This document shows positions 974 through 32,485 of a stretch of 32,974 nt of DNA, in pieces. The stretch's first letter is position 1, and every line of letters begins with the position of its first letter. The translations under genes and the position numbers were made by a program. Location: the NCBI GenBank assembly GCA_964443285.1, contig CAYUCJ010000001.1, forward strand, positions 1-32,974. The letters are read 5' to 3'. This DNA comes from an uncultured Desulfobacteraceae bacterium. Lineage in GTDB: Bacteria > Desulfobacterota > DSM-4660 > Desulfatiglandales > Desulfatiglandaceae. The notes beneath the pieces are model-generated. The model saw only the letters and a list, made by a program, of their open reading frames with translations. It searched no databases and was not told the origin of the DNA.

Positions 974-1411
974 GTGAGCAACCTTGTGTCTACGGATAAC
1001 GATACCAAAAAAAGCAGTGAAGTACAGTTTACCGTCCCTTTTCACGATCTTGATCCCATGCAAATGGTTTGGCACGGCAATTATCTCAAGTATTTTGAGA
1101 TTGCTCGATCCGCACTCTTTGCCCGATCAGGTGTGGACCTTTTTGACTATTTTAAAAAAACGAATTGTCTATTTCCGATCATAAAGACAGCCACGAAACA
1201 CGTGGCTTCATTGAAATATCTTGATGAATTCAAATGTAAGGCAACCATCATTGAGGCAAAATGTAAGATTGTAGTGGAATTTCAAATAAGATTGCTTAGA
1301 AACAATCAACTCTGTGCAAAGGGAAGGACTGAACAGGTTGCAGTAAAATATCCCGAGAAAGAAATTTTGTTCGAAATACCGAAGGATATCCGTGAGGCTC
1401 TTGGATTTTAA
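974..1411 (+). CDS. 4HBT/YbgC-type hotdog-fold acyl-(CoA/ACP) thioesterase
   Basis: 145 aa, GTG start. The N-terminal block FTVPFHDLDPMQMVWHGNYLKYFEIAR is the catalytic-Asp plus HxxNY signature of 4-hydroxybenzoyl-CoA-thioesterase-like hotdog proteins. It is a paralogue of the ORF at 22434..22913 (HGNYLRYFEFGR). Confidence 0.8.
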   Translation: MSNLVSTDNDTKKSSEVQFTVPFHDLDPMQMVWHGNYLKYFEIARSALFARSGVDLFDYFKKTNCLFPIIKTATKHVASLKYLDEFKCKATIIEAKCKIVVEFQIRLLRNNQLCAKGRTEQVAVKYPEKEILFEIPKDIREALGF

Positions 1412-1413
1412 CT

Positions 1414-3132
1414 ATGGAACCCGATTTTCAAAAAGCATTGATTGCGGGAGTGGAGCGGGTTTCTGCATGGTCCGATGTGCTTGACCGAATCAATGTATTC
1501 CCGGTTGCGGATGGAGATACAGGACGCAATCTGAAAATCAGTCTCAGCCCGCTGCGACACATGAAAAAGCCTCGGGAAAAGACAATCCGTGATCTCCTGC
1601 TGTCGGCTCGCGGCAACTCAGGAAATATCGCAACTCGCTTTTTTTCGGGATTTTTGAACTCGGATTCCTGTGAAGGACTGTGTCATGCAACAAGAATCGG
1701 CAGGGATCTAGCGTGGGGGGCAGTGCACAACCCAGTTCCCGGAACGATGCTGACGGTTTTTGATGCTCTGGTTGATTTTTTGGAAAGAGAGGGTTTCGAA
1801 TATACCAATCAATGTGTCTCAGAGATTGTTAATCGGCTGGAAGAGGCCGTAAAGGCAACTCCGGAACTTCTGCCAAAGCTGAAATACGCCGGAGTAGTGG
1901 ATGCAGGGGCTTTGGGAATGTACATCTTTTTTGAAGGATTTTTTTTCGCTCTTGTAGGTCAAACCGAAAAATTTAGACTGATTCAGGTTGTATTCGAGAA
2001 CATGCTTGAAGTTTCTCCCTCCTTTCAGGAAGAGATGGAGGAAGGATACTGTGCAGACATGGTTCTCCACTTCCAGACCAACGCCGAAGAAAAAGTGGAG
2101 AAACTCTCCGAATGCGGTGGTAGTTTGGTAATCATTCCTCACCAGGAATATTTTAAGGTGCATTTACATACGGCTGACACCAGGAAAACCAGAAGCCGGA
2201 TTGAATGCCTGGGCGAGGTTATGCAATGGTCGGATGATAATATTGGAAGTCAAATCAAGTCGTTTAAACGCCAACCTCGCCGAGATGCCATTCATATAGT
2301 GACGGACGCGGCTGGCTCTATCACCCTCGATGATTCTTGTGAACTGGGATTTACTCTCCTTGACAGCTATATCAATGCAGGCGAAAAGTGCCTCCCTGAA
2401 ACACTGTTTTGTCCGTCCGAACTCTACAGGCTCATGCGAGCGGGCGTAAAAGCCTCGACTTCTCAGGCTTCAGTATTTGAAAGACATCAGTGTTATCAGA
2501 GAATCATTCATCAGTACCCCAGGGCACTGTACCTCTGCACAGGGTCTGTTTTCACCGGGAACTACCAGGTGGCTATGGACTGGAAACAAAAACATGATCC
2601 GGATGATTGTCTGACCGTTATCGACACTGCGGCCGCCTCAGGCAGACTGGGCGTCATTGTTATAGCCACTGCAAAATATTCCGCCAAAATCGATGACCCC
2701 GAGGCGGTGATCGAATTTGCCAATCGCACGATCAATGAGTGCCAGGAGTATGTCTTTCTTGATAAGCTTAAATATTTGGCCGCAGGAGGGCGGTTATCTA
2801 AATCAAGTGCATTTCTCGGAGACGCATTTCATGTTAAGCCGATTATCAGTCCGACGGCTGAGGGGGCTAAGAAGGTAGGCGTCGTAAAGAATCAAGAGGG
2901 GCAACTGGAGTTTGCCCTTCAGAGGCTTGAAGAGTCTCTCGATCACGCCTCAGCTCCTCTCATTATACTGGAGTATTCCGACAACCTTGCCTGGGTTATC
3001 GATACGCCAAAAAAAGAAATTGAAAGGGCTTACCCTTCAGCGGAGGTCCTGCTCAAGCCTTTATCTTTGTCTTCCGGGGTTCATATGGGTCCCGGGACCT
3101 GGGCGGTGGCCTTCCTGCCTGAATCGGCTTAG
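1414..3132 (+). CDS. DhaL/DAK2 (FakA N-terminal-like kinase domain) fused to a DegV (FakB-like fatty-acid-binding) domain
   Basis: 572 aa. The N-terminus has INVFPVADGDTGRNL and ARGNSGNI, the DAK2/YloV-FakA nucleotide-binding motifs. The C-terminal half has IHIVTDAAGS, KASTSQAS, GSVFTGNYQVA and VIDTAAASGRLG, which line up with the DegV blocks (IVTDS, TSQPS, LSGTYQSA, VIDSxxxSxGxG). The start lies 2 nt after the upstream stop. Confidence 0.85.
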   Translation: MEPDFQKALIAGVERVSAWSDVLDRINVFPVADGDTGRNLKISLSPLRHMKKPREKTIRDLLLSARGNSGNIATRFFSGFLNSDSCEGLCHATRIGRDLAWGAVHNPVPGTMLTVFDALVDFLEREGFEYTNQCVSEIVNRLEEAVKATPELLPKLKYAGVVDAGALGMYIFFEGFFFALVGQTEKFRLIQVVFENMLEVSPSFQEEMEEGYCADMVLHFQTNAEEKVEKLSECGGSLVIIPHQEYFKVHLHTADTRKTRSRIECLGEVMQWSDDNIGSQIKSFKRQPRRDAIHIVTDAAGSITLDDSCELGFTLLDSYINAGEKCLPETLFCPSELYRLMRAGVKASTSQASVFERHQCYQRIIHQYPRALYLCTGSVFTGNYQVAMDWKQKHDPDDCLTVIDTAAASGRLGVIVIATAKYSAKIDDPEAVIEFANRTINECQEYVFLDKLKYLAAGGRLSKSSAFLGDAFHVKPIISPTAEGAKKVGVVKNQEGQLEFALQRLEESLDHASAPLIILEYSDNLAWVIDTPKKEIERAYPSAEVLLKPLSLSSGVHMGPGTWAVAFLPESA

Positions 3133-3141
3133 GTTTCGAGA

Positions 3142-3993
3142 GTGAAGACAAAAAATTTCTTTCGGTTTCAGGGATTGGATGGGGACAACTCTGAAAGTTG
3201 TTACTTCAGCCTGAAGGAGGAAAATATCCGGCAGAATGTTGAGTTAACGGAAATTGACAGTAAGGGACGATTCGCTCTTGTGATTCCCACCTATAATCAC
3301 GGGAAACGAGTTGCAGAGGTTGTGAAGGAATCCCTGAAGTTTAACCTCCCATTGTTCGTGGTTGACGACGGTTCCACGGATCTAACCCAAGCCATGATTG
3401 CGGACCTCGAAGGGGTCTGTCCTCTGAGACACAATGAAAATCGCGGAAAAGGAGCGGCGATCCTTACAGGGTTTGCCGAAGCCTCTAAAGTTGCGGATTG
3501 GGCCATTACAATAGATGCGGATGGGCAACATAACCCTCAAGATGCCTTGAAAATGGTTCAGGCGATTCCTGAAAATGAACGACCTATCATCGTGGGGATG
3601 AGGCGAGGAATGGAGGGGAAGAGCGTCCCGTGGACCAGTCGATTTGGACGGAAGTTTTCCAATTTCTGGGTGTTGCTTTCAGGTGGACCCACCATGAAGG
3701 ATTCTCAAAGCGGATTCAGAATCTATCCTATCCCCGAAGCAATGAATCTGAACGTCCTTTCAAGACGATTTCAGTTCGAGGTTGAGATCCTGGTAAAGGC
3801 CGGATGGAAAAAAATGCGGGTCATCGAAGTGCCGGTCGAGGTGAATTATGGCCAGGGGGCTGAAAGGATCTCCCACTATAGGCCAGTTGTCGATTTCTTG
3901 AGAAACAGTAGCACGTTTGCCCGACTCATTATACAAAGGATAATCAGGCGTTTTACCCCTCTCTTCCGATCTGGAGGAACCCCCGTAATTTGA
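3142..3993 (+). CDS. Family 2 glycosyltransferase (DPM1/ArnC-like polyprenyl-phosphate or lipid glycosyltransferase)
   Basis: 283 aa, GTG start. Motifs: LVIPTYNH, VVDDGSTD, ENRGKGAA and the DxD-type ITIDADGQH. Confidence 0.85.
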   Translation: MKTKNFFRFQGLDGDNSESCYFSLKEENIRQNVELTEIDSKGRFALVIPTYNHGKRVAEVVKESLKFNLPLFVVDDGSTDLTQAMIADLEGVCPLRHNENRGKGAAILTGFAEASKVADWAITIDADGQHNPQDALKMVQAIPENERPIIVGMRRGMEGKSVPWTSRFGRKFSNFWVLLSGGPTMKDSQSGFRIYPIPEAMNLNVLSRRFQFEVEILVKAGWKKMRVIEVPVEVNYGQGAERISHYRPVVDFLRNSSTFARLIIQRIIRRFTPLFRSGGTPVI

Positions 3994-4089
3994 CCCCGCT
4001 TCAGCCCACAGCGGGGGAGCAAGGGAAGAAGTCGAGCGATGGGACGCAGTTCTCAGACCTCATACGCGAGGGAGCCTTAGCCGCGAGCA

Positions 4090-4977
4090 ATGAGAAAAAT
4101 TTTTCATAGAAGCGTAAGTCTGTTTTCAAAGGCAGCGGGCTCATGGATTTTTGTCGCATACGCTTGGGTCGTCTCAACAGGTTTTTTCCTCTTTTTCCCT
4201 TTAAGAGTTCGAAACAGTGTTCGCTTTTATCGGATTCTTTTTCCAGACCGTAATCGGACGTTTCATCTCTGGTGCGTTTGGCGGCAGTTTCACAATTTTG
4301 CAGATGTGTTTGTCGACCGCTTTTTGCTGCAGAAATTTTCGGATATCACATATTCGTCCGAAGGCTGGGAACACCTTGATCAAGCCCTTCGGGAAGGGCA
4401 CGGGGGAATTCTGCTCATGTCCCATATGGGGAACTGGGAGGTCGCTGCACATCTTTTAAAAAGCAAAGACCACAACCTGAAGTTGCTTCTCTACATGGGG
4501 GCCAAACATAAAGAGCAACTCGAGCGAATTCAAAAGGAGAGTCTTTCCCAAAGCGGCATAAGAATTATTGCCGTGGATCATCGAGGCGGATCTCCCTTGG
4601 ATCTTGTCGAGGGAATGAGGTTCATCAACTCGGGCGGGCTGGTTTCCTTAACCGGCGACCTGCTTTGGAAAGAGGATCAGCGGAGCGCATCGGTGACTTT
4701 CTTGGGGCAGGAAGTCTGCCTTCCAGCGACACCACACTTGCTGGCGCTTTTGTCCGGTGCTCCTTTATTTGTCTTTTTTGCCTTTCCAGCGGGAAATAGG
4801 CACTATCACTTTACCTTGTCCGAACCCATATACATCCAGGCCTCTTCCCGAGGCGAGAGAACGGAGGCCATCCGACGTTCTGCTCAAAGTTATGCAAATA
4901 TACTGGAAGAAGCCCTTCGAAAGAACCCTCTGCAATGGTATCACTTCGAGCCGTTCTTCGGTTCGAAATCAAAATGA
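4090..4977 (+). CDS. LpxL/HtrB-family (lipid A biosynthesis-type) lysolipid acyltransferase
   Basis: 295 aa with an N-terminal TM helix. GGILLMSHMGNWEVAAH matches the HX4(D/E) catalytic block of lauroyl/myristoyl acyltransferases. Overall length and layout fit this family. Confidence 0.75.
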   Translation: MRKIFHRSVSLFSKAAGSWIFVAYAWVVSTGFFLFFPLRVRNSVRFYRILFPDRNRTFHLWCVWRQFHNFADVFVDRFLLQKFSDITYSSEGWEHLDQALREGHGGILLMSHMGNWEVAAHLLKSKDHNLKLLLYMGAKHKEQLERIQKESLSQSGIRIIAVDHRGGSPLDLVEGMRFINSGGLVSLTGDLLWKEDQRSASVTFLGQEVCLPATPHLLALLSGAPLFVFFAFPAGNRHYHFTLSEPIYIQASSRGERTEAIRRSAQSYANILEEALRKNPLQWYHFEPFFGSKSK

Positions 4978-5089: not shown

Positions 5090-5365
5090 GTGGAAAATCT
5101 TATGAAACGCGACGAAATAGAATCCCAAATTCTCCAAATCTTCAGAGATCAATTCGAAATAGCGAACCCGGGCCTGGACCAAGACTTGAGAGAGGTGTAT
5201 GAGTTCGACAGCATCGACGCCATTGAACTCCTGAGGGAGATAGAAGTGTTGCTCGGCGCTAAACTGACGCGGGAAGAAAAGAAAAGCGCCATGGACATAC
5301 GAACGATCAACCAGATTCTTGATTACATCGAGTCGATCGGGGCGAGTAGGGCCGCACAGGTATAA
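5090..5365 (+). CDS. Acyl carrier protein (cluster-specific ACP 1)
   Basis: 91 aa from GTG 5090; an alternative ATG at 5102 would give 87 aa. The phosphopantetheine attachment motif is YEFDSIDAIELL. Confidence 0.85.
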   Translation: MENLMKRDEIESQILQIFRDQFEIANPGLDQDLREVYEFDSIDAIELLREIEVLLGAKLTREEKKSAMDIRTINQILDYIESIGASRAAQV

Positions 5366-5390: not shown

Positions 5391-6629
5391 ATGAAACGAA
5401 GAGTCGTCATTACGGGATGCTCCGCCATAACGCCGATTGGTCACGGTAAGAAAGAAATCGTTCGCCATCTGGTAGATGGAATTTCCGGGGTTAAAAAATT
5501 GCGCGCTGATGATTTGCTTTCTGAATACATCCACTCCGGCGTCTATGGAACAGTGAGTTATCCGATTGAGTATGCCTTCAGGCGTCGGGATCGCAAGACC
5601 ATGGGGCCGGTTTCTTATTACGCTTGTCAAGTGGCAAAGGAGGCCATAGAAGAATCCGGTCTTGACGATGCCTATATCCGGTCAGGCAGGCTGGGTGTGG
5701 CTTTCGGGTCGACTCATGGCAGTCCTACCGTCCAAAGGCAGATCTACAAGTCGTTCTTCAGCGAATCTAAATCCGAATTCTCCTCCATAGGGGCCGTGGA
5801 TTACCTGAAATCGATGGTCCACACCACGGCAGTGAATATTACCAAGATGTTCGGCATCACCGGTCGGGTTCTCTCTTCTTCCACTGCCTGCACCACCAGC
5901 AGCCAGTCGATCGGATTCGGATACGAAATGATCAAGTTCGGCATTCAGGATGCGATGCTTTGTGGAGGCGCGGACGAGTACGACACGACGACGGTGGCCG
6001 TATTCGACAGCCTGATGGCCTGCTCGACCGCCTTCAACGACGCACCCCACCTTACCCCTCGCCCCTTCGACGAACAAAGAGACGGCCTTGTGGTTGGGGA
6101 AGGCGCTGGCGCCCTTCTGTTGGAAGAATATGAATCGGCCAAAAAGAGGAAAGCGAACATCTTGGCCGAGGTTATAGGGTTTTCCTGCAACAATAACGGC
6201 GGCGATTTGATTTTGCCTAATCTCGACGGAATTACTGAGACCATTCGTCTGGGGCTCAAAGATGCCGATGTCACCCCGGATTCAGTTGATTTTGTGAGCG
6301 CTCACGCCACTGCTACGAAGATGGGCGACATTATAGAAGCGCAAGCGATAGGAAAGGTGTACGGAACTTCTCCTGTGGTTGCAAGCTTGAAGAGCTACAT
6401 GGGACACACCATGGGATCGTGTGGGGCCATAGAGACCATCATGACCCTTTATATGATGGAAAGTGGATTTATCGCACCGACGTTGAACCTGAACAAGATC
6501 GATGAACGATGCAAGATGATTCACCTTGCGGTGGAACTCCTTGAATCCGACATTCGCCTTGCCGCGATTCAGAATTTCGCCTTTGGAGGTGTGAACACCT
6601 GTCTTGTGTTGAAGAAGTTCGATCAGTGA
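5391..6629 (+). CDS. Beta-ketoacyl-ACP synthase, FabF/FabB-like (KS-1)
   Basis: The ORF-track frame 5319..6629 is trimmed to ATG 5391 (MKRRVVITGCSAITPIG), because the longer form overlaps the ACP. The catalytic triad is present: SSTACTTSS (Cys), SAHATATKMGD (His), MGHTMGSCG (His). The C-terminus is NFAFGGVN. Confidence 0.9.
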   Translation: MKRRVVITGCSAITPIGHGKKEIVRHLVDGISGVKKLRADDLLSEYIHSGVYGTVSYPIEYAFRRRDRKTMGPVSYYACQVAKEAIEESGLDDAYIRSGRLGVAFGSTHGSPTVQRQIYKSFFSESKSEFSSIGAVDYLKSMVHTTAVNITKMFGITGRVLSSSTACTTSSQSIGFGYEMIKFGIQDAMLCGGADEYDTTTVAVFDSLMACSTAFNDAPHLTPRPFDEQRDGLVVGEGAGALLLEEYESAKKRKANILAEVIGFSCNNNGGDLILPNLDGITETIRLGLKDADVTPDSVDFVSAHATATKMGDIIEAQAIGKVYGTSPVVASLKSYMGHTMGSCGAIETIMTLYMMESGFIAPTLNLNKIDERCKMIHLAVELLESDIRLAAIQNFAFGGVNTCLVLKKFDQ

Positions 6630-7427
6630 TTGATCGGCAACACCGAGCCAAGCGAAATGAAGGCACTCTTAAGATCTCTTTATGACGTTGCGGTGACCCT
6701 ATTTCTCTGGTTTTATTACAGCCTCGGCTTCATTCTCTTCTTCGCCTCCTTCTATGTGGCCGCCTATCTTTTTTCTAAGAGTCGTGAGAGATCATTTCAG
6801 AGATTGAATCACCGATTTTACAAGGGATTCTTTTTTCTGCTCCGTCTTTTGGTCCCATGGGACAGATGGCGCATAGACGATGACGTCCTAAAAATCAGAT
6901 CTTCCGTTATCGTCTGCAACCACGTGTCGTATCTCGATCCTATCCTCATGATAGCGTTGTTTGAAAGACATAAGACTATCGTAAAGGCACGCTTTTTCAA
7001 GATGCCCATTTTTCGCCAGATCATCGAGCTGTCGGGGTACCTTCCCTCATCTTCGACCGGTAGGACAAGAAACATGATGGTTCAAAGGCTGGAAGAAATG
7101 GAGACTTACCTTGCCTCCGGTGGCAACCTCTTTGTTTTTCCGGAAGGAACGCGAAGCCGGGACGGTAAGGTGGGTCGGTTGAACAAGGGGGCGTTCAAGA
7201 TTGCCAGGCTTTGCAAAAAGCCGATCAAGGTCCTCTTCATTCGCAACACGGACAAATTGTTTCAGCCTGGAAAATTTTTGTTCAATACGTGCTCTTCGAA
7301 CACCGTCAGTGTGAAACTGCTTGCCAGCCTTGAACCTAACTATCAAAGCAGCGATTTTTCAATAGCTAAATTGGCGTCGGAGGTACATTCGTTGTTGGAG
7401 GCCCAAAGCGCGGAAGGAGCTGTTTGA
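6630..7427 (+). CDS. PlsC-family 1-acyl-sn-glycerol-3-phosphate (lysophospholipid) acyltransferase
   Basis: 265 aa from TTG 6630, which directly abuts the KS stop; an alternative ATG lies at 6657. Features: an N-terminal TM segment, the HX4D motif VCNHVSYLDP, and FPEGTRSRDG. Confidence 0.85.
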   Translation: MIGNTEPSEMKALLRSLYDVAVTLFLWFYYSLGFILFFASFYVAAYLFSKSRERSFQRLNHRFYKGFFFLLRLLVPWDRWRIDDDVLKIRSSVIVCNHVSYLDPILMIALFERHKTIVKARFFKMPIFRQIIELSGYLPSSSTGRTRNMMVQRLEEMETYLASGGNLFVFPEGTRSRDGKVGRLNKGAFKIARLCKKPIKVLFIRNTDKLFQPGKFLFNTCSSNTVSVKLLASLEPNYQSSDFSIAKLASEVHSLLEAQSAEGAV

Positions 7428-7512: not shown

Positions 7513-9003
7513 ATGAAGATTATCTTGATGTCCATGCCGGATGTGGCACCATTGATCATGCATGAATCCGCCTTCCATATGCCCAATTGCGGCATTGCCA
7601 GTGTCGGAGCGAATATCGACGACGGTCATGAAATCTACATTATCGACCTCATCCGAAAGCGCAAGCATCTGAGAAGGTATCTGACCAAGAAATTGCTGAA
7701 AATTTGTCCGGACCTTGTCGGGTTGTCGGCCATGGCATGGCAGTACGAAACCTGCGTAAAAATCATCAAGCTGATCAAGAGGCTGCTTCCGGAAACGAAG
7801 ATTCTCATCGGAGGGTACCATGCCACTTTGATGTATGAGGAGATTGCCGGATCCGACGAGGCACGATTGATCGACTTCATGGTGTGTGGAGAGGGAGAAG
7901 AGGCCTGCCGGCGTTTGGTCAATGCCCTGGAACGAAAAGATCTCTTCGAAAAGATCCCTTCGCTTTCCTACAAAAAGGGCGGACGCTTCGTCCACAATCC
8001 CAGAGGAGAGCTCCTGAATTTAGCCAAACTGAGACGTCCGATCAGAGACAAGCGGCGGTTGACCTGGGGATACCACATTATGAATTCCAAGGTTGAAGTC
8101 TTGGAAACCTCCCGGGGCTGCACGCGGACGTGCACTTTTTGCAGCATGAATCACATGTACGGGAGAGCGTTCAGGACGTTCCCAATCGAACGGGTAATGG
8201 CCGATTTGGATGAGATCTATCACCGCTGTAAGGCCAGATGGGTTTTTGTTGCAGACGACAACCTGGTCTTGGACCCTGCAAGGGTACTCAAAATCTGCGA
8301 CGCCATCATCGCACGGAATTTTCGGAACCTGCACCTGGTGGTCCAAGCTGACTGTGTGTCGATATCTCAAAATGAGGAAATGGTCCGCAAGATGGCCCAA
8401 GCCGGGATCAAAACCATTTTTCTGGGCATTGAAAACGTGTCTAAAAAGAACCTGGCCGAAGCCAGGAAGGGGAACATCGTAGAGGCCTCTCGAAAGGCTG
8501 TGGCGATGTGCCAAAAATACGACATCATGGTGGTCGGGGGGCTCATTTTCGGCTTTCCGGAAGACAACGAAACGGCCATCATAGAAAACTATGCCTTCTT
8601 GAAATCCATCGGAGCGGATACCGCCTACTGTCAGATTCTCACTCCCTATCCCAAAACCGTCATGCGCCAGCACTTGCTCGATGAAGGCCTGGTGACAAAC
8701 CTCCACGATTATAAATGGTACAATGGCATGTGGGCCAACGTGAAGACGAAGCACTTGGATTCCGATCGGCTACAGTATCTGTTCTGGTACCATCGCCAAA
8801 AGGTCCTGGGCTGGTGGGAGCCTTCGGAGCGTATCCGCCAGCAGGGATGGCTGTGGACCTCTATCTGGATCTATGCCTTCAGGCCCTTGTTGAAGCTTCT
8901 GATCAACCGGTCGCTCAGAAAGTACGGTTGGAGAGGACGCTATGAGAGAGAGATGAAACGCTTGTCCCGTGTGAACGCCTTTCCGGACCTGAAGGGGTTG
9001 TAA
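7513..9003 (+). CDS. Class B (cobalamin-binding domain) radical SAM enzyme, rSAM-1
   Basis: 496 aa. The N-terminal Rossmann-like B12-binding region is LVGLSAMAWQYETCVKIIKLIKRLLPETKILIGGYHAT. The CX3CX2C cluster motif is TSRGCTRTCTFCSM. A good SD (GAGGGAGA) lies upstream. Confidence 0.9.
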   Translation: MKIILMSMPDVAPLIMHESAFHMPNCGIASVGANIDDGHEIYIIDLIRKRKHLRRYLTKKLLKICPDLVGLSAMAWQYETCVKIIKLIKRLLPETKILIGGYHATLMYEEIAGSDEARLIDFMVCGEGEEACRRLVNALERKDLFEKIPSLSYKKGGRFVHNPRGELLNLAKLRRPIRDKRRLTWGYHIMNSKVEVLETSRGCTRTCTFCSMNHMYGRAFRTFPIERVMADLDEIYHRCKARWVFVADDNLVLDPARVLKICDAIIARNFRNLHLVVQADCVSISQNEEMVRKMAQAGIKTIFLGIENVSKKNLAEARKGNIVEASRKAVAMCQKYDIMVVGGLIFGFPEDNETAIIENYAFLKSIGADTAYCQILTPYPKTVMRQHLLDEGLVTNLHDYKWYNGMWANVKTKHLDSDRLQYLFWYHRQKVLGWWEPSERIRQQGWLWTSIWIYAFRPLLKLLINRSLRKYGWRGRYEREMKRLSRVNAFPDLKGL

Positions 9004-13043: not shown

Positions 13044-13170
13044 ACCTCCCCTGTAGGTTAAAGAAATAAATATGAACATGTCCAACTTTTCAGGCGTCCG
13101 GCACCCAACCGAAAGGGTTCTGGAAGGTTCTCCCCCGCAACACACCTAGGTAATGATTTCGGGAAACAAA

Positions 13171-22432: not shown

Positions 22433-22433
22433 C

Positions 22434-25835: not shown

Positions 25836-26573
25836 ATGCACCCTCGCCGGATAACCATGGAGGCCTTCAACCTCGATCATTGTTGGGAATTTTTCGACAG
25901 CATCTACTGTATCTCTCTTAGGGAAAGACAAGACCGGCGAAGAGAGGCAAAGATGCAGTTCGACCGCGTGGGCCTGTTGGAGAGAGTCGAGTTTTCCCTC
26001 GTGAACAAACACCCGGAAAACAACGAACAGGGGATTTATGAATCTCACTTGGCTTGCATCAGAAAAGGCATCGAAGTCGACGCGAAAACAATCTTGATCT
26101 TCGAAGACGACATCCTTTTTGAACGGTTCAGCCGTAGCAGGCTCAGACATTGCGTCGACTTTTTGTCGGCCGTTCCCGATTGGAATCTCCTCTTTCTTGG
26201 ATGCTTGGTCAAGAGCAGCAAGAGAACAGTCGATGCAAACGTCCTCGAGGTGAAATATCGAAGCTTGGCTCATGCCTATGCTATAAACCGCAAGTTTGCC
26301 GAGGTCTTAGTCGAACAGCCGTGGCAGGGTTTGGCCTACGATCAAATGCTCAGCTCTTATGAGCGAGGCTGCTACGCCATCTACCCTTCCCTTGCTTTTC
26401 AGAGCAATTCCGCTACGGACAACGCCCAATGCCTACGGTTGGATAGGTTTCGACGATTGTGTGGGGGACTGCGGCTTATCCAAAAAATTGATGAGGCCTA
26501 TCATCTTCACAGGAGAAATTTTATATTCTTCCATCTTCTTTTGGCCTCCATTGTCCTGTTGTGGCTCTTCTAA
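25836..26573 (+). CDS. Family 25-like glycosyltransferase (LPS/LOS beta-glycosyltransferase type) with C-terminal TM anchor
   Basis: 245 aa with a good SD (AGAGGG). IYCISLRERQDRRREA, ESHLACIRKG and ILIFEDDILF match the GT25 layout (ISL..x.eRR ... SH ... EDD). Confidence 0.6.
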   Translation: MHPRRITMEAFNLDHCWEFFDSIYCISLRERQDRRREAKMQFDRVGLLERVEFSLVNKHPENNEQGIYESHLACIRKGIEVDAKTILIFEDDILFERFSRSRLRHCVDFLSAVPDWNLLFLGCLVKSSKRTVDANVLEVKYRSLAHAYAINRKFAEVLVEQPWQGLAYDQMLSSYERGCYAIYPSLAFQSNSATDNAQCLRLDRFRRLCGGLRLIQKIDEAYHLHRRNFIFFHLLLASIVLLWLF

Positions 26574-26609
26574 CCCTGTCAGACAGGCTTTCAGGCTTTG
26601 GATTTTAGA

Positions 26610-29600
26610 ATGAGACCGAAAATCTTCAACCCGTACATACTGATTGCGACCCTCCTAGCCTTGTCCTTGCTGTTCGCTGTGGGTTTCCACCGGTTGAAAG
26701 TCGACACGGACATCATCAATTATCTGCCCGAAGATCCCATCATCCAAAACGCCATGCACGTTTTCAAAAATCACGAAATCCAGGATCACGTTGTGATTGA
26801 CGTTTCTCTCGAAAAAAGAGGACTGGATCGACTGGTCGAATACGGCGACAAAGTCGAAGAGGCTTTGAGGGCCGATGGACTGTTCAAGACCGTTGGCTTG
26901 CGGAATTTCGCAAACTCAATGCCCGCCTTGGCGAGCTTCATCACAAAAGATCTCCCAGTGCTGTTTGACGAAAAGGAGCTGAACGAAGAGATTCGGCCTC
27001 TAATCCAGCCGGAAGCGATTCATAAGCGATTGGAGGAGCTTCATCGAAATTTGATGAACCTGGACAGCATCGGCCAGGCCGAATTCATCGAAAATGATCC
27101 CCTTGGACTAAAAAAATTTGTAATGGCCAGGTTGGCGTCGTTGGCCCCCTCCCAAAATGCCCATTTTTATAGGGGGCAACTCTTATCCTCTGACAATAGA
27201 CACTTGCTCGTGATCGCTTCTCCTAAGGGTTCGAGTACCGATACCCGATTTTCCCGTAAAGTGGTCGAGGCGATAAGCAAGATCGCCAAATCGCTGGGTC
27301 AAGAGGCATCCCAAAGGGGAGACCGCCTGACGCTGACCCCTGTAGGCGCCTACCGCGTTGCGCTCGACAACGAGCTGATCGTGAGAAGGGACGTCAAAGT
27401 AGCGATTCTCTTCGCGACCGTAGGTATTGCGTTGCTGCTCGTCTTGGCCTTTCCGAGGCCTTACATGGGGTTATTATCCCTTTTCCCATCGATCGCAGGG
27501 ACCATGCTGGCCTTTTTTGTCTTTTCCTTGCTACACCAATCGATATCGATTATGGTGCTCGGATTTGGGGGTGCCATCATATCTATTACCGTCGATCATG
27601 TGATCGCCTACCTTTTGTTCCTTGATCGCCCCCACTGGACCTGCGGAAAAGAGGCGTCGCGAGAGGTCCGTTCAGTAGGCCTACTCGCCTTACTCACGAC
27701 CGTGGGCGGCTTTGAAGGGCTCTCTCTTAGCGGATTTCCGATCCTCGAACAGCTCGGCCAATTCACGGTCCTCGGAATGTCTCTGTCGTTTGTCTTCACT
27801 CACTTCGTTTTCCCATTGATCTTTCCATCGATGCCTCCCTCCAGGCCGCGAACGTTGCCCCTTCAAAAGGTTGTAAACAAATTGGCTCGATTCGGGAAAA
27901 AGGGTGCCTTAGTCGCCTTCTGTTTTGCCGCAGTCATGCTTTTCTTCGCGAAGCCTGAATTCAACGTCAACCTTAGTTCCATGAACACCGTGAGCAAGGA
28001 AACGGCAGCCGCTGACAAACTCCTCGCAGATGTTTGGGGAAACGTGACCAACAAGATTTTTTTGATGGTTGAGGCGGACAGCATCGTGGACCTGGAGACC
28101 AAGGAGGATCGACTCCTGAAAAGGCTGGGCCCGGAACTGTCCTCGGGCGCTTTGTCATCAGGCATCGTCTCTTCGATGATCTTTCCGGGAAAAAGTAGGA
28201 GAGATGCGAATTTGGTGGCCTGGAAAAAGTTTTGGAACAGCGACAGAATCTCGGCGCTCAAGAAAACGGTGAAAAAGACCTCTGCCGAGCTCGGCTTTTC
28301 AACAGCAGGCTTTGAAACCTTTTACAAAACCCTTGAACCCTCGTGGCGTCCGGCGGGAAACTTCAACGTCCCCGAAGAGTTCTACCCCCTTCTTGGCATG
28401 AAGAAGAACCCCGACGGATCATGGATACAGATCTCAACTTTCACAACCGGCAAATCCTTCGATAGCGAGCGATTTTACGCGGAGCATCACAGTCTGGGAA
28501 GCATCTTCGATCCGATGCTCTTTTCTAAAAGGCTCGGCCAACTTCTCTTTTCCACTTTCCTGAAGATGCTCGTCATCATAGGGGCGGGCGTGGTTGTGCT
28601 CGTTTTCCTATTTTTCCTCGACTTGAGGTTGACCCTGGCTTCGCTGCTGCCGGTCGTGTTCTCGTTCATCTGCACCCTGGGCGCTCTGAATCTCCTGGGC
28701 CACCCCCTCGACATTTCGACCTTAATGCTCTCGATTGTCGCCATAGGAATGGGAATCGACTACTCTCTATTCTTTGTCCGAAGCTATCAAAGATATGGCG
28801 ATGCCTCACACCCCTCCTTCGGCCTTATCCGCATGTCTGTTTTCATGTCCGCAGCCACCACCTTTGTGGGTTTTTGTGCCTTGTGCTTCGCCGAACACAA
28901 TCTCTTGAGGAGTGCAGGTCTGACCTCGACCCTGGCCGTCGGATTTGCGCTGACAGGGGCTTTTTTGATCTTGCCGCCGGTTATGGAACACCTTCTTCAG
29001 GATCGCAAGAAGGACATCCTCGAAGGTCGGACGCCCGCAGAGAGAGTTCTAAGACGATACCGGAACATAGAGACATACCCGAGATTGTTCGCGCGGTTCA
29101 AGCTGCTTTTAGATCCCATGTTCATAGAACTGCCAGCCCTTTTGAACACCCATCAAAACGGCGTGCGGACAATTGTCGATATCGGGGTTGGCTACGGCGT
29201 GCCGGCGTGTTGGTTTTTGGAGTGCTTTCCAGAATCGAAGGTGTACGGCATCGAGCCTGACCCTGATCGAGTGGGTATTGCGTCCAAAGCGATTGGAAAA
29301 AGGGGGCTTATCACCCGCGGCCGCGCACCGGAAATGCCGCAGACGCCGACTTTGGCTGATATGGCGACCATGTTGGACATGATGCATTATCTGGACGACG
29401 AGGGTTTGAAACTTACGCTGAAGAGGTTGCACGGCAGTCTTTGCCGGGAAGGCTTTGCGATCATCCGAACGGCGCTCGTTCCTGAAAGGAAATTCCCATG
29501 GACATGGTGGATGGAGAATCTTAAGCTAAAGGCTCACGGAGTTCCAACCTATTATCGTCCCCTTGATGAAATCGAAAAAAGGATGATCGAGGCTGGATTT

Positions 29601-29672
29601 GTTATCGAGCACACCGCCTTTTCAGGGTCCAAAAAGGAATTAATCTGGCTTGTGCTGAAGATCAAACAGTGA
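26610..29672 (+). CDS. MMPL/RND-superfamily-type 'predicted exporter' membrane protein fused to a C-terminal class I SAM-dependent methyltransferase domain
   Basis: 1020 aa from ATG 26610; the ORF track begins at TTG 26598. There are two blocks of hydrophobic helices (about aa 270-420 and 640-790), each preceded by a large soluble loop, as in MMPL-type lipid exporters. The last 220 aa or so contain IVDIGVGYGVPACWFL (SAM motif I, GxGxG), VYGIEPD (motif II acidic residue) and MLDMMHYLDDEG. Confidence 0.8.
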   Translation: MRPKIFNPYILIATLLALSLLFAVGFHRLKVDTDIINYLPEDPIIQNAMHVFKNHEIQDHVVIDVSLEKRGLDRLVEYGDKVEEALRADGLFKTVGLRNFANSMPALASFITKDLPVLFDEKELNEEIRPLIQPEAIHKRLEELHRNLMNLDSIGQAEFIENDPLGLKKFVMARLASLAPSQNAHFYRGQLLSSDNRHLLVIASPKGSSTDTRFSRKVVEAISKIAKSLGQEASQRGDRLTLTPVGAYRVALDNELIVRRDVKVAILFATVGIALLLVLAFPRPYMGLLSLFPSIAGTMLAFFVFSLLHQSISIMVLGFGGAIISITVDHVIAYLLFLDRPHWTCGKEASREVRSVGLLALLTTVGGFEGLSLSGFPILEQLGQFTVLGMSLSFVFTHFVFPLIFPSMPPSRPRTLPLQKVVNKLARFGKKGALVAFCFAAVMLFFAKPEFNVNLSSMNTVSKETAAADKLLADVWGNVTNKIFLMVEADSIVDLETKEDRLLKRLGPELSSGALSSGIVSSMIFPGKSRRDANLVAWKKFWNSDRISALKKTVKKTSAELGFSTAGFETFYKTLEPSWRPAGNFNVPEEFYPLLGMKKNPDGSWIQISTFTTGKSFDSERFYAEHHSLGSIFDPMLFSKRLGQLLFSTFLKMLVIIGAGVVVLVFLFFLDLRLTLASLLPVVFSFICTLGALNLLGHPLDISTLMLSIVAIGMGIDYSLFFVRSYQRYGDASHPSFGLIRMSVFMSAATTFVGFCALCFAEHNLLRSAGLTSTLAVGFALTGAFLILPPVMEHLLQDRKKDILEGRTPAERVLRRYRNIETYPRLFARFKLLLDPMFIELPALLNTHQNGVRTIVDIGVGYGVPACWFLECFPESKVYGIEPDPDRVGIASKAIGKRGLITRGRAPEMPQTPTLADMATMLDMMHYLDDEGLKLTLKRLHGSLCREGFAIIRTALVPERKFPWTWWMENLKLKAHGVPTYYRPLDEIEKRMIEAGFVIEHTAFSGSKKELIWLVLKIKQ

Positions 29673-30589
29673 AGGGCGTGAACCCCGACTTCGCCCGACG
29701 ACCTTCTTCCTATGTCAACGCACCCTCGGTAGAAGCTTTGAAACCCATGAAAGTCCATCCAGGAATCTCTTCTTTGTCCATTGCCGAAAGACTCGGCCTC
29801 GTTTCTTTGCTGACTGCTGCCTTGCTTGCTTTTCTGGATGTGCGGCTTTCGACCATCCCTTTGGGTGGGTTCCTTCTGCTTTGCATCGTGTTTCCCTTTT
29901 TCCCTCGAAGCAATTTTTATTTACCGGTCGTCAGTCATGGCGTATCGGGGAAAAAGGCCGTGGCACTCACCTTCGACGATGGCCCTGATCCGCTGTCCAC
30001 CCCAGAATTGCTCCGTCTGCTTTTGAATCATGGGGTGAAAGCGACGTTCTTCGTCACGGGGAAAAGGGCGTCCAAGCACCCGGAATTGGTGCGGGAAATT
30101 TTGGGCCAAGGGCATACCCTCGGAAACCACACTTACAGCCATGATTGTCTGCTGGCATTGAGGAGCACAAAGCGTCTGTTCAAAGAAATAGAATCAACTC
30201 AGGATGTTTTGGGTGGTTTCGGTATCAGGTGTCTGGCGGTCCGTCCCCCAGTGGGGGTTTCAAGCCCCAGACTTCGAAAGGTCCTTGAAAAGACAAATGC
30301 CATGAACATAAGTTTCTGCTGTCGTGCCTTAGATGGTGGCAACAGATGGATCGCCAACCTTTCAGAGAAGATCCTGAAACGAGTGCGTCCTGACGACATT
30401 GTCCTGCTTCACGATGCCCAGCCCAAAGAGGTCCGTCTCTTGCCCTTTTGGCTAAAGGAAGTCGAGTCGATTCTTTCAGGCTTGGAAGCAAAGGGCCTCG
30501 CCGTTCTCCCTTTGTCCGAGATCATTGGAAGGCCGGTGATGCTGACGGAAAAGAAGAAAAAAGGGGAAGGAGAGGGGGCGGTCTTCTAG
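29669..30589 (+). CDS. Membrane-anchored polysaccharide deacetylase (NodB homology/CE4 domain)
   Basis: 306 aa from GTG 29669 (GTGA overlap); an alternative ATG lies at 29747. There are two N-terminal TM segments. Motifs: VALTFDDGPD, VKATFFVTG and GHTLGNHTYSH, which form the CE4 metal-binding Asp-His-His set. Confidence 0.85.
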   Translation: MKGVNPDFARRPSSYVNAPSVEALKPMKVHPGISSLSIAERLGLVSLLTAALLAFLDVRLSTIPLGGFLLLCIVFPFFPRSNFYLPVVSHGVSGKKAVALTFDDGPDPLSTPELLRLLLNHGVKATFFVTGKRASKHPELVREILGQGHTLGNHTYSHDCLLALRSTKRLFKEIESTQDVLGGFGIRCLAVRPPVGVSSPRLRKVLEKTNAMNISFCCRALDGGNRWIANLSEKILKRVRPDDIVLLHDAQPKEVRLLPFWLKEVESILSGLEAKGLAVLPLSEIIGRPVMLTEKKKKGEGEGAVF

Positions 30590-30605
30590 GCGTAAGGACG
30601 CTTTT

Positions 30606-31313
30606 TCAGCGCGCCATGCAGCGTCCTACGAGTTCGCTTAAATCCCGAAGTTCGCTTTTCTCGAATTCGATCACGCCGCTTTTCTTCCATCTCAATTCCC
30701 CGTATGGAGCAATTCCCTCGGAAGGTGATTTCTCTATGAGGAAAAAGAGCGCACCAGGGGGTGCCTTGCTGAAAGCGTCAAAGGGGGGAGGGTGTTTCAC
30801 GTTGTTGACGCCGAAAATCATCTGATCGCATTCTCCCAAGGCGATGCTGCCCAACGCCAGCCTCAAACAGGTCAGCCCGAGAGGACAGGGCTCGTTGACG
30901 ACGAAGGCCTTTCCGGTAATCCCGAATCGGATGGCCGCCTCACCAAGAAAACTATTGGATAGAGTGTAGGCGAACAAGGCGGGGCTTGCACCGGTACCCC
31001 CCTCGCGCATGACTGTTTCATAATAATTGAGATCGATGCCGAGGCAGCCGTACTCAGTGGAAACAATGACGCCGATGTTTCTCTTGTGCGCCCATCGATC
31101 CATTTCCGCGTCTTTCAGGGCGAAGGAGATGGCGGCAATGCCAACCTTCGAGTATTCGCCCATCCGCCTGAAACTTGGGTATGGCTCTTCGAACAGTCTT
31201 TCGTGCTCGATGTTGGGCAATGGGCCCTCGCCGAAGGCAAATTCATCACCATCCCTTGCGCATCCCATGTTGGTTGCGGTGACCCAGCCGATTCCCGTGA
31301 CGCTCGCGATCAC
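30606..31313 (-). CDS. Short KS-like protein lacking the condensing triad (chain-length-factor/ApeC-like partner)
   Basis: 235 aa, GTG start with a GTGA overlap on the upstream KS-5 stop. It has a KS-fold N-terminal half (IASVTGIGWVTA, SPALFAYTLSNSFLGEAAIRFGITG) but no TACxS Cys motif. It is too short to hold the two His motifs. Confidence 0.75.
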   Translation of the reverse strand: MIASVTGIGWVTATNMGCARDGDEFAFGEGPLPNIEHERLFEEPYPSFRRMGEYSKVGIAAISFALKDAEMDRWAHKRNIGVIVSTEYGCLGIDLNYYETVMREGGTGASPALFAYTLSNSFLGEAAIRFGITGKAFVVNEPCPLGLTCLRLALGSIALGECDQMIFGVNNVKHPPPFDAFSKAPPGALFFLIEKSPSEGIAPYGELRWKKSGVIEFEKSELRDLSELVGRCMAR

Positions 31314-32485
31314 GCCTGTTGCTCTTTTCCCAGTACGAGGGCGGCATTGATGCCGCCGAAGCCTGAATTAGCGGTCAACAAATAATCTCCTGAAATGGAG
31401 AGGGGTTCTCGGCTGACCCATCCCTTTGCCTCGGACATCGGATGGGTAAGGCCCACAGTCGGGGGGATTTCTTTAGAGGAGAGCGCTTGTAGCGCCATGG
31501 CAACCTCAACCCCCCCAGCAGCCCCCAGGCAATGCCCGACGGCGCCTTTAACCGAGTAGACGGGGATCCTCCTTTTTCCAAACACCTTCCGGAACGCGGT
31601 AAGTTCCATAAGGTCATTGTACACGGTGCCTGTACCGTGTGCACTCACGGCGGCGACCGCTTCGCTTGCCAACCCTGCCCTTTTCAAGCTAGATAATATG
31701 GCTTGTTCCAATCCGCAACCCTCCTTGTCTGGAGCCGTGATATGGGTCGCATCGCTTGCAACGCCCCAACCGACCACATTTCCAAGAGGAGGGCGGTTCT
31801 CCTGCTTCGCCCGGTCTCTGCTCATCAAAAGCAAGGCTGCTGCCCCTTCTCCAAGTGATAAGCCCTGCCGGTCACGGTCGAAGGGTTTACAGGGAACGGG
31901 GGACAACGCTTTGAGAGCCGAGAATCCTGAAAAGGTGAATTCGGCAACTAGGTCGATACAGCAGACCAACACTACGTCGGCTCTTCCCAAGGCGATCAAC
32001 CCAGCTCCTTGAGCTAACGCAATGGCAGAGGAGGCACACGCCGCACTGATGTTGAACCCCTGTTCGATCAGCCCCAGCTTTCTCGATACGAATCGAGAGA
32101 TGGATGAAAGCGAAATATCCTCGATCTTGGCGGGCTTCCCACTTTGAGATTTCTCCAAGTTGTCGATTCCCGCCTTTGCGGTGGCTGTGATAAGAAGGGA
32201 GTCAGGAGGGACAGGTGCCATTTCAGTGAATAGACGGTCAAGAAGCGGTCGTATCATGGATCCTCCGTCACACCGTTTCAGATCCGCGATACAGGCGGCA
32301 TACTTGGAGCTGTAATTTTCTACAGGAAAGCGGGTTACACGTCTGACGGCTGTCTTTCCCGACAGGAGCCTCTGCCAAGAATCTCGAAGATTGTCTCCTA
32401 GCGCAGTCACCATGGTTGCATCTGTAATCTGAACCTCCCGAATGCTGTGGAATTCTGAGTTTTGGTTTGTCTGCTTTGAATTCAT
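31310..32485 (-). CDS. Beta-ketoacyl-ACP synthase (KS-5)
   Basis: 391 aa. The triad is ISAACASSAIA (Cys), SAHGTGTVYND (His), VGHCLGAAGGVE (His). The C-terminus is NSGFGGINA. It is translationally coupled to the CLF-like gene. Confidence 0.9.
   Translation of the reverse strand: MNSKQTNQNSEFHSIREVQITDATMVTALGDNLRDSWQRLLSGKTAVRRVTRFPVENYSSKYAACIADLKRCDGGSMIRPLLDRLFTEMAPVPPDSLLITATAKAGIDNLEKSQSGKPAKIEDISLSSISRFVSRKLGLIEQGFNISAACASSAIALAQGAGLIALGRADVVLVCCIDLVAEFTFSGFSALKALSPVPCKPFDRDRQGLSLGEGAAALLLMSRDRAKQENRPPLGNVVGWGVASDATHITAPDKEGCGLEQAILSSLKRAGLASEAVAAVSAHGTGTVYNDLMELTAFRKVFGKRRIPVYSVKGAVGHCLGAAGGVEVAMALQALSSKEIPPTVGLTHPMSEAKGWVSREPLSISGDYLLTANSGFGGINAALVLGKEQQA

Follow-up and report, generated by a model that had tools for sequence, protein, structure and literature searches.

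A widespread Desulfobacterales variant of the aryl polyene gene cluster with up to five radical SAM enzymes and a putative outer-membrane lipid product

What kind of lipid is made by a gene cluster that joins the machinery of aryl polyene (APE) synthesis to five radical S-adenosylmethionine (SAM) enzymes? The question is raised by a 32,974-nucleotide stretch from an uncultured Desulfobacteraceae bacterium (assembly GCA_964443285.1, contig CAYUCJ010000001.1; hereafter, the window), in which a lipid-synthesis cluster occupies positions 974-32485 on both strands, with 31 open reading frames (ORFs) and 96% coding sequence. A preliminary description, made from the letters alone, had presented it as an orphan island of 29 co-oriented or tightly coupled genes. 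Pfam and NCBIfam scans of the window ORFs, from which our domain calls are taken, recovered the gene content in the described places; 31 genes were counted instead of 29, and they are arranged in six blocks of alternating orientation rather than in one direction. Nine gene junctions overlap, and the remaining gaps are mostly shorter than 120 nt. Based on the results given below, we suggest, with a probability of roughly 0.55, that the product is an outer-membrane glycophospholipid similar to the aryl polyene lipids (APELs), with polyenoyl chains that start from a non-aryl unit and are tailored by cobalamin/radical SAM enzymes.

The 18 ApeA-R proteins of Escherichia coli CFT073 were compared with the window proteins by BLASTP. 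Thirteen of them have a homologue in the window (23-45% identity), in line with the aryl-polyene-type chassis proposed earlier, and the reciprocal pairs include ApeR/KS1, ApeO/KS-CLF, ApeQ/FabG and ApeE/ACP2. KS1 (5391..6629, +) is an ApeR-like ketosynthase (KS) with a complete Cys-His-His triad (39% identity to ApeR, E 3e-93, reciprocal best; PRK09116, 406.7 bits). The FabG-type ketoreductase (11757..12494, -) is ApeQ-like, with 45% identity and 307 bits on NF004200 (cut-off 273). ApeO and ApeC match the two halves of a single 725-aa fusion, KS-CLF (13416..15593, +; Pfam ketoacyl-synt, Ketoacyl-synt_C and Ketoacyl-synt_2), ApeO aligning with the N-half (36%, E 4e-61) and ApeC with the C-half (26% over 108 aa), where CLF stands for chain-length factor. 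Among the acyl carrier proteins (ACPs), ACP2 (13153..13437, +) is ApeE-like (42%; NF006617, 73.9 bits, cut-off 70), and ApeF matches both ACP1 (5090..5365, +; Pfam PP-binding) and ACP2 at about 30% (31% for ACP1). The thioesterase TE1 (974..1411, +), of the 4HBT/YbgC type, corresponds to ApeK (33%, E 1e-26; Pfam 4HBT_2, 44.5 bits). Two hotdog dehydratases were matched by ApeI (16986..17345, +; 33%; Pfam FabA and ApeI-like; PDB 3esi and 6qsr_A) and by ApeP (12516..12956, -; 25%; Pfam ApeP-like, 31.6 bits).

The anchoring proteins follow the same scheme, and the export proteins appear to do so. ApeD matches a PlsC-type lysophospholipid acyltransferase (6630..7427, +; 27%; Pfam Acyltransferase, 73.9 bits). 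Residues 8-224 of ApeJ align with a GT2 glycosyltransferase (3142..3993, +; 32%; Pfam Glycos_transf_2, 85.8 bits), and its residues 319-549 align with an LpxL-type acyltransferase (4090..4977, +; 26%; Pfam Lip_A_acyltrans, 56.2 bits). ApeL matches a LolA-like periplasmic carrier (11019..11636, -; 28% over 71 aa; Pfam LolA, 47.3 bits), and ApeM matches an MMPL/RND exporter of the HAE3 type (26598..29672, +; 23%; Pfam MMPL; HAE3, 109 bits) that continues into a C-terminal SAM-methyltransferase domain (Pfam Methyltransf_25/11). The place of ApeN (DUF3261) next to LolA is held by a lipoprotein without family assignment (10351..11022, -), which has a signal peptide and an LLTSC lipobox and gave neither a sequence match to ApeN nor any match in Pfam or NCBIfam.

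Judged by these homologies, the locus is a clear variant of the characterised aryl polyene system. The ape core-gene set, as defined by Grammbitter et al., is complete in the window. Like the APE/APEL clusters of E. coli CFT073 and Xenorhabdus doucetiae, the window combines a KS/CLF, a second KS, two ACPs, a ketoreductase and ApeI/ApeP dehydratases with counterparts of ApeK, ApeD, ApeJ, ApeL and ApeM, contains no enoyl reductase and appears to keep the same export logic. In contrast to these clusters, the aryl-ACP synthetase ApeH and the methyltransferase ApeB are missing, ApeO and ApeC are fused into one protein, and the two-domain ApeJ of E. coli (558 aa, L084:7713-9389) is split into adjacent genes. 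The window additionally contains the five radical SAM genes, a third ACP, three more KSs, a second thioesterase, a dehydratase fused to a 4'-phosphopantetheinyl transferase (DH-PPTase), a GT25-like glycosyltransferase, a CE4 deacetylase, a Fak fusion, a PagL-like gene and the methyltransferase domain on the MMPL exporter. The absence of enzymes for an aryl starter had been noted before and is supported here, since ApeH gave no match and no AMP-binding (AMP-ligase), aromatic-lyase (Lyase_aromatic) or enoyl-reductase domain was found in the 31 ORFs by Pfam and NCBIfam. Two proteins were compared with flexirubin families, without a search for dialkylresorcinol (Dar) genes, and neither belongs to them at the equivalog level: FabG scored 310 bits on FlxB (cut-off 340), and the LolA-like protein scored 91.6 bits on LolA2_flexi (cut-off 125).

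All five radical SAM proteins that had been announced carry the CxxxCxxC motif, and three of them (rSAM1, rSAM2 and rSAM3) have a B12-binding domain. The third, rSAM3 (15590..16939, +), belongs to family TIGR04072, with 379.4 bits against a cut-off of 360 and residues 2-448 aligned to model positions 1-442 of 443. The NCBI name of this family is 'lipid biosynthesis B12-binding/radical SAM protein', and its short name is 'rSAM_ladder_B12'. For comparison, the homologue in the related locus L065 reaches 407.8 bits, and that in the Myxococcales locus L078 reaches 341.7 bits, just under the cut-off. The start of rSAM3 overlaps the stop of KS-CLF by 4 nt. The protein resembles BzaD over nearly its full length (137.6 bits on the BzaD model) and TsrM (111.9 bits on the model), whose structure PDB 6wte is its best match (E 1e-28), the likeness being strongest in the B12-binding domain. 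These scores lie far under the cut-offs of the two families (450 and 500 bits), and the presumed substrate of rSAM3 is an ACP-bound acyl chain as opposed to the indole or benzimidazole of TsrM and BzaD.

The other two cobalamin-type enzymes lie side by side. BchE/HpnR-like rSAM1 (7513..9003, +), with CTRTCTFC at residue 203, exceeds both Pfam cut-offs (B12-binding and Radical_SAM), as does rSAM3, and scores 168 bits on the BchE model, which is below its cut-off. The Pfam matches of rSAM2 (9012..10271, -), a B12-type radical SAM protein, are marginal: the B12-binding domain reaches 32.8 bits against a cut-off of 32.1, and Radical_SAM falls under its cut-off, yet the motif CRYHCYPC is present at residue 173. 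A PDB sequence search gave one marginal match for rSAM2 and none for rSAM5. The enzymes rSAM4 (17764..18861, +; Pfam Radical_SAM, 40.1 bits) and rSAM5 (18912..19910, +; a family without name) are paralogues with 27% identity, and each has a second Cys cluster near the C-terminus; the motifs are CNVRCEGC and CCVPDTDCTDC in rSAM4, and CNLRCKGC and CTSETRDCSTC in rSAM5. The AlphaFold2 model of rSAM5 has a pLDDT of 70 and leaves the Cys-rich C-terminus unmodelled. In a Foldseek search of this model against the PDB, PqqE (E 7e-5, TM about 0.4) was the sole match at E <=0.001, the others being generic TIM barrels, so the model says nothing beyond a probable 'SPASM-like radical SAM' fold. In the related locus L004, one more B12-type radical SAM gene (14606-15775) was observed on the opposite strand between rSAM5 and KS3, its product being 22% identical to rSAM1.

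To see how far this arrangement extends, a genome collection with one genome per species was scanned with the TIGR04072 enzyme rSAM3. The scan yielded 80 loci (designated by L numbers), which nearly all come from Desulfobacterales, Desulfobacteraceae, Desulfosarcinaceae or Desulfococcaceae, with a few Myxococcales metagenome-assembled genomes (MAGs); L030 is titled Desulfosudis oleivorans. The same cluster thus occurs in dozens of related species, and the orphan status given to it at the outset has to be withdrawn. In public data, the rSAM3 family comprises more than 3600 clusters at 90% identity (E <=1e-20), the named ones being Desulfobacterales/Thermodesulfobacteriota MAGs, and the rSAM5 family comprises more than 1800. 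The window proteins were mapped on the loci by tblastn with a best-query-per-region rule, and conservation was counted over the 39 loci of at least 20 kb. Among these long loci, ACP2 was found in 38, FabG in 36, the ApeI-like dehydratase in 33, the ApeP-like dehydratase in 31, and rSAM2, rSAM4, rSAM5, KS3 and KS4 in 30 each (rSAM2 and KS4 at about 76% conservation). ACP3 and TE2 are present in 29/39, LolA in 28/39, the lipoprotein beside it in 27/39 and the dehydratase gene, with or without its PPTase half, in 26/39. The genes from rSAM2 to this dehydratase follow the order and orientation of the window. The best relative is L001 (HGW-Deltaproteobacteria-15), with 72-88% amino acid identity; the cluster there is colinear from KS1 to GT25, a stretch in which identities are 60-88%. 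Such an order, kept in dozens of species at 35-88% identity, goes far beyond chance. The most conserved protein of the locus is rSAM5 (about 80% identity across loci), homologues of which, at 81-89% identity, occur in more than 1897 clusters. Two further loci, anchored on rSAM5 homologues, show the same cluster with the full chassis, including the fusion of MMPL and methyltransferase. In one of them, L086, on a 138-kb contig, many genes are broken up or truncated: KS-CLF measures 616 aa, rSAM3 is a fragment of 241 aa and one KS has 289 aa. Frameshift errors in a long-read assembly seem a likelier cause than pseudogenes.

Conservation of the radical SAM genes truly goes hand in hand with that of the KS and ACP genes, and the reading of their adjacency as more than an accident is upheld by the 30/39 counts. 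The invariant core of the family is ACP2 with rSAM3. In about 63 of the 70 assessable loci, ACP2 immediately precedes rSAM3 or the unit that KS-CLF forms with it. The fused KS-CLF stands between ACP2 and rSAM3 in 49 of the 70 (50 if L059 is counted across an N-gap); in 10 loci, ACP2 abuts rSAM3 without an intervening KS-CLF, and in 4 more it lies within about 300 nt upstream.

Part of the cluster behaves as a unit, which we call module B. It begins with ACP3 (17463..17750, +; Pfam PP-binding), includes rSAM4 and rSAM5 and continues with KS3 (19904..21160, +) and KS4 (21167..22432, +), two FabF-like ketosynthases by Pfam/NCBIfam with complete triads and 41% identity to each other. It ends with TE2 (22434..22913, +), a 4HBT thioesterase (Pfam 4HBT_2) that corresponds to a 159-aa gene at the same place in L085, and with the DH-PPTase gene (22892..24553, +; Pfam PS-DH and ACPS). 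In 30 of the 39 long loci, module B sits at the same site, between the ApeI-like dehydratase and the export and head-group genes (50-88% identity). It is missing en bloc from L015, L021 and the Myxococcales loci, where the chassis and rSAM3 remain; in L015 and L021, the genes for the small membrane protein, MMPL and CE4 come straight after rSAM3 and the ApeI-like dehydratase, and L015 has GT25 as well. The positions of rSAM1 and of the KS5/KSN pair vary among loci. Only the N-terminal 270 aa or so of the DH-PPTase were matched or called in L009, L030, L055, L069 and L085, the PPTase half being absent, so this fusion is variable within the family.

The ketosynthases were compared in an alignment of the seven KS-like sequences. 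As described earlier, five of them (KS1, the N-half of KS-CLF, KS3, KS4 and KS5) have the complete Cys-His-His triad. Of the two Cys-less units claimed in addition, one stands: in the C-half of KS-CLF, the Cys and both His are absent. The other, KSN (30606..31313, -; 235 aa; Pfam ketoacyl-synt with partial model cover), keeps a Cys aligned with the nucleophile and consists of the N-domain only, the entire His-His half being gone. The sequence thus marks the N-half of KS-CLF as a predicted active-type, ApeO-like ketosynthase and the C-half as chain-length-factor-like. The best PDB matches of KS-CLF are 9s5h_B and 6qsp_A, with 6qsp_B also among the best; matches of its CLF half to designer-PPR structures were rejected as repeat artefacts with no significant stretch. 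KS5 (31310..32485, -) overlaps KSN by 4 nt, and its best NCBIfam match is AmcF ('cispentacin biosynthesis acyltransferase subunit'), with 233.8 bits under a cut-off of 325. KSN is likely a short CLF partner of KS5; it measures 235 aa compared with 239 aa for ApeC in PDB 6qsp_B. The DS motif is present in ACP1, ACP2 and ACP3, and the three ACPs, FabG, three dehydratase domains, two 4HBT thioesterases and PPTase expected from the first inspection were all found by Pfam/NCBIfam.

The same is true of the LolA, lipoprotein and MMPL set, the GT2, GT25 and CE4 genes, the LpxL- and PlsC-type acyltransferases and the PagL-like gene. The GT25-like glycosyltransferase (25836..26573, +; Pfam Glyco_transf_25, 31.8 bits, cut-off 24) precedes the MMPL gene, and the CE4 polysaccharide deacetylase (29669..30589, +; Pfam Polysacc_deac_1, 99.2 bits) follows it. 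The join of an exporter and a methyltransferase is an unusual transporter-enzyme fusion and is kept in L015, L021 and L085; its methyltransferase domain is not similar to ApeB by BLASTP and matches nothing informative in the PDB. Directly after TE1 stands a gene (1414..3132, +) that had been described as a DhaL-DegV fusion. The fusion is confirmed, and its identity can be refined: the combination of Dak2, a FakA middle domain and DegV (Pfam Dak2, FakA-like_M and DegV; NCBIfam YloV, DegV and FakA) makes it a fatty-acid-kinase fusion of the FakA-FakB type. Among the 80 loci, it was seen again only in L067, where it also adjoins TE1. The gene of the PagL-like outer-membrane protein, possibly a deacylase (24541..25251, +; Pfam PagL, 60.8 bits), shares its first 13 nt with the end of the DH-PPTase gene and was matched in none of the 80 related loci, so it is specific to the window; in several relatives, an esterase and/or PlsY was observed at this position. 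A small membrane protein of 117 aa (25279..25632, -), with hydrophobic segments and no family match, is present in 18 of the 39 long loci (54-81% identity), always on the opposite strand between the dehydratase gene and GT25/MMPL.

Taken together, these data lead us to propose the following course of lipid assembly. The KS/CLF system would consist of the fused KS-CLF, the ApeR-like KS1 and the split pair KS5/KSN. With the ApeQ-like ketoreductase and the ApeI/ApeP-like dehydratases, it would assemble, on dedicated ACPs, chains of the conjugated polyenoyl or 3-hydroxy-polyenoyl type, conjugation being expected because the cluster contains no enoyl reductase. The starter is probably acetyl derived from malonyl-ACP by decarboxylation, rather than an aromatic acid. 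An anammox KS/CLF-like heterodimer decarboxylates malonyl-ACP and so initiates synthesis (preprint 10.64898/2026.05.19.726425), which offers a starter-free route of initiation. Owing to its adjacency and translational coupling, rSAM3 probably acts on intermediates bound to ACP2 and would modify the chain there. BzaD and TsrM both methylate aromatic sp2 carbons. As they are the nearest characterised relatives of rSAM3, C-methylation of an sp2 carbon is the most economical guess and most likely its reaction. Further cobalamin/radical chemistry may be added by rSAM1 and rSAM2, and module B may make or tailor a second acyl chain.

The later steps can be drawn by analogy with APEL. Its glycerol-phosphate-GalNAc backbone bears two acyl chains, one a conjugated C26:5 chain and the other saturated, together with an aryl polyene esterified to the sugar; ApeD puts the conjugated chain on a lysophospholipid, and ApeJ adds and acylates the sugar (Grammbitter et al., preprint). 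In the window, the ApeD-like PlsC and the split ApeJ (GT2 and LpxL-like) would set the chains on a glycerol-phosphate-hexosamine backbone, and GT25 and CE4 may trim or edit the head group. It is possible that the FakA-FakB fusion re-activates released acid for re-entry into glycerolipids. PlsY follows the dehydratase gene in eight related loci (seven of the Desulfobacterales type and L064), which fits the Fak fusion and supports glycerolipid anchoring. Finally, the MMPL transporter, LolA and the lipoprotein are proposed to carry the lipid to the outer membrane.

Several points weigh against this proposal. In the BLASTP comparison, no window homologue was detected for ApeH, ApeB, ApeA, ApeG or ApeN. 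Reduction of the chains by a housekeeping FabI could lead to saturated products instead of polyenes, and a ligase elsewhere in the genome could supply an aromatic starter, as some relatives have one in the cluster. Cobalamin radical SAM enzymes also carry out cyclisations, ring contractions and dehydrations, and likeness to TsrM and BzaD does not fix the reaction. PDB sequence searches, AlphaFold and Foldseek provided no informative relatives of rSAM4 and rSAM5. Furthermore, none of the family's members has yielded an isolated product: gene content, motifs, Ape homology and synteny are observed, and from them we infer all the chemistry, that is, every step, the starter unit and the type of radical SAM reaction, including the methylation, cyclisation or coupling of a polyene that was suggested at the outset. 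The earlier statement that no characterised product is available for this architecture agrees with our literature and database searches, and the literature search found no paper on TIGR04072 or on the product of clusters that unite APE and radical SAM genes.

The preliminary description had drawn an analogy to the candidate ladderane loci of anammox bacteria. Anammox Cluster I (KustE3603-3608; loci L081/L082) encodes an ACP, FabZ, FabF2, FabFmut, a phytoene-dehydrogenase-like protein and a B12 radical SAM enzyme. In theme it resembles the window, with a dedicated ACP, a hotdog dehydratase, a KS paired with an inactive one and a radical SAM enzyme that uses cobalamin. The differences are that amxFabFmut is a full-length FabF whereas the CLF of the window is short or fused, that the dehydratase is of the amxFabZ type versus ApeI/ApeP types, that the window has no homologue of the phytoene dehydrogenase (no Amino_oxidase domain and no BLASTP match among its ORFs), and that export or anchoring genes are not found near the anammox locus. 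The best PDB match of the KS domain, 9s5h_B, is the anammox amxFabF2 (a Planctomycetia protein shares 97% identity with it and the Kuenenia one 89%), and the window KS domains are 28-33% identical to it, no closer than to ApeO or ApeR (36% for ApeO). The best matches of amxFabFmut are the active KS3 and KS4 (27%). The canonical FabZ of the cluster (150 bits) matches just 71 aa of the ApeI-like dehydratase (27%), and amxACP matches no window ACP at E <1e-3. Of the window proteins, rSAM2 comes closest to the B12 radical SAM enzyme of Cluster I (L081:13989-15449), with 28.6% identity over 455 aa and E 3e-49; rSAM3 reaches E 4e-5 only. The name 'rSAM_ladder_B12' was tried as a tie of rSAM3 to Cluster I and rejected, as the Cluster I enzyme scores 87.9 bits on TIGR04072 under the cut-off of 360. 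The model must represent either a different anammox paralogue or only the deltaproteobacterial, APE-associated enzymes. By sequence, then, the window does not appear to be an orthologue of Cluster I, the likeness being thematic apart from one distant radical SAM homology. The part of the analogy that called Cluster I unproven holds (PMC10139942), while the link itself is weak, given the lack of orthology and the single homology of rSAM2 at 29%. Heterologous production of the Cluster I radical SAM enzyme has not succeeded, and a genetic system for anammox bacteria is lacking (PMC10139942).

Closer to the window in taxonomy, clusters with fatty acid synthase and radical SAM genes were described in the deltaproteobacteria Desulfotalea psychrophila, Geobacter and Pelobacter by Rattray et al. 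2009 (PMC2649909), and metagenome surveys of biosynthetic gene clusters contain 'ladderane' or 'aryl polyene' calls for Desulfobacterota (PMC9902471, PMC13635244). Judged by their description, these clusters of the same phylum resemble the window in fabF paralogues, including inactive ones, ACPs, radical SAM genes, a glycosyltransferase and a polysaccharide-deacetylase-like gene. The Desulfotalea cluster differs, again by its description, in phytoene-dehydrogenase-like and phenylacetyl-CoA-ligase-like genes, both of which the window lacks.

Other explanations have to be weighed against a non-aryl, radical SAM-tailored lipid. The locus may be a true aryl polyene cluster for which other parts of the genome provide the aromatic starter and its loading enzyme, so that the radical SAM enzymes would tailor an aryl polyene lipid. 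There is precedent for a remote starter, as the 4-hydroxybenzoate of E. coli comes from UbiC, outside the ape cluster (PMC8253772). Unassigned ORFs of the related loci were clustered and representatives scanned with Pfam, and an aromatic amino-acid lyase (PF00221, 553 bits) and/or an AMP-ligase-ApeI fusion was found in the Myxococcales loci L068, L071, L073 and L078, in L064 and in L065, the four Myxococcales loci joining the TIGR04072-type enzyme to both. From their gene content, these six loci can be classed as bona fide aryl polyene clusters with a TIGR04072-type enzyme, which suggests that radical-SAM-tailored aryl polyenes exist in Myxococcota. In L064, lyase and ligase even stand together with PlsY, module B and a phytoene-dehydrogenase-like gene, and in the Desulfobacteraceae loci L041 and L051 a ligase adjoins the DH-PPTase gene. 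The window, however, contains no lyase, no AMP-ligase-ApeI fusion, no PlsY and no phytoene-dehydrogenase-like gene; an ApeH homologue and an AMP-binding domain are found in none of its 31 ORFs, the aryl methyltransferase ApeB is likewise without homologue, and most Desulfobacterales loci have neither lyase nor ligase within 10 kb on each side of rSAM3. An aromatic starter is considered unlikely. A single product might be denied altogether if the APE-like chassis and the radical SAM/KS cassette were two or more independent pathways standing side by side. The en bloc absence of module B from L015, L021 and the Myxococcales loci, the shifting positions of rSAM1 and KS5/KSN, and an ACP, a thioesterase and a PPTase of its own would suit such independence. 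Module B nevertheless occupies the same site in 30/39 long loci at 50-88% identity, has no ketoreductase, acyltransferase or exporter of its own and is accompanied by the full chassis in both rSAM5-anchored loci, which makes unrelated neighbours an improbable account.

Two further explanations take the anammox and deltaproteobacterial comparisons as their starting point. Ladderane-type or other cyclobutane or carbocyclic fatty acids, made by anammox-like radical SAM chemistry, are brought to mind by the short name of the rSAM3 family, by the 28.6% identity of rSAM2 to the Cluster I enzyme, by amxFabF2 as the best PDB match of the KS domain and by AmcF as the best, albeit sub-threshold, match of KS5. 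Several findings speak against it: the Cluster I enzyme is no TIGR04072 member, the KS domain is as near to ApeO (36%) as to amxFabF2 (33%), amxACP is unmatched, the dehydratases are ApeI/ApeP-type and not FabZ, and a phytoene-dehydrogenase homologue is missing. Moreover, ladderanes were not detected in D. psychrophila despite its similar clusters (PMC2649909), and the literature describes them as unique to anammox bacteria. We regard this outcome as very improbable. For the clusters shared by Kuenenia and Desulfotalea, Rattray et al. proposed an anaerobic route to polyunsaturated fatty acids or hydrocarbons. D. psychrophila, which has clusters of fatty acid synthase and radical SAM genes, is reported to contain polyunsaturated hydrocarbons (PMC2649909), the window has no enoyl reductase, and L060 and L064 carry phytoene-dehydrogenase-like flavoenzyme genes. 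Against such a route, the window has no homologue of the latter and no Ole-type genes among its ORFs by Pfam/NCBIfam, and the split ApeJ, the ApeD-like protein, MMPL and LolA point to a membrane-anchored complex lipid rather than a free hydrocarbon; we hold it to be hardly probable. A more speculative extension of the preferred APEL-like glycophospholipid, to which we give a small chance, is that rSAM2 and rSAM4/rSAM5 go beyond methylation and form C-C bonds on ACP-bound polyenoyls by cyclisation or cross-linking, which would yield a new class of carbocyclic or cross-linked outer-membrane lipids of sulfate-reducing Desulfobacterales.

Some observations concern the window as a whole. Three ORFs open upstream of their likely true starts: KS1 at 5319 (likely start 5391), rSAM4 at 17635 (17764) and TE2 at 22299 (22434); the revised starts agree with the 365- and 159-aa gene calls in L085. 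The G+C content of the left end (1-3000) is 0.43-0.46 compared with 0.50-0.58 in the rest of the cluster. On the left flank, a small minus-strand ORF at about 400-640 has a lipoprotein-like signal (LIIALSGC), and another minus-strand ORF runs off the window end; the left-flank fragments gave no significant Pfam match (a single 0.097 match under the cut-off). In the last 490 bases, no convincing gene was recognised. An Rfam scan of the whole window gave zero matches, cobalamin riboswitches included, and promoter and terminator scans of positions 1-14000 stayed at chance level.

Few kinds of bacterial biosynthetic gene cluster are as widespread as those of the aryl polyene type. The locus described here represents a large, highly conserved Desulfobacterales branch of them, in which the aromatic starter appears to have been dropped and up to five radical SAM enzymes acquired, two of them from families without a curated name. 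The window adds its PagL-like gene and the Fak fusion, the latter shared only with L067. The family is widespread, one of its genes bears a database name, and similar clusters, as far as their descriptions allow comparison, have been mentioned since 2009, while the product is chemically unsolved; the value of the locus is thus that of a well-defined 'known unknown' and not of a new kind of system. Because rSAM2 is homologous to the Cluster I enzyme, the family could also inform the ladderane problem. Some carriers appear to belong to species with cultured representatives, such as the one titled Desulfosudis oleivorans (L030), and if C-C bonds are indeed formed, cultivable carriers would be a tractable surrogate for the enzymology of ladderane formation. 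Once solved, the product would provide a first function for the TIGR04072 family and would extend the envelope lipids of the abundant sulfate reducers in sediments by one class.

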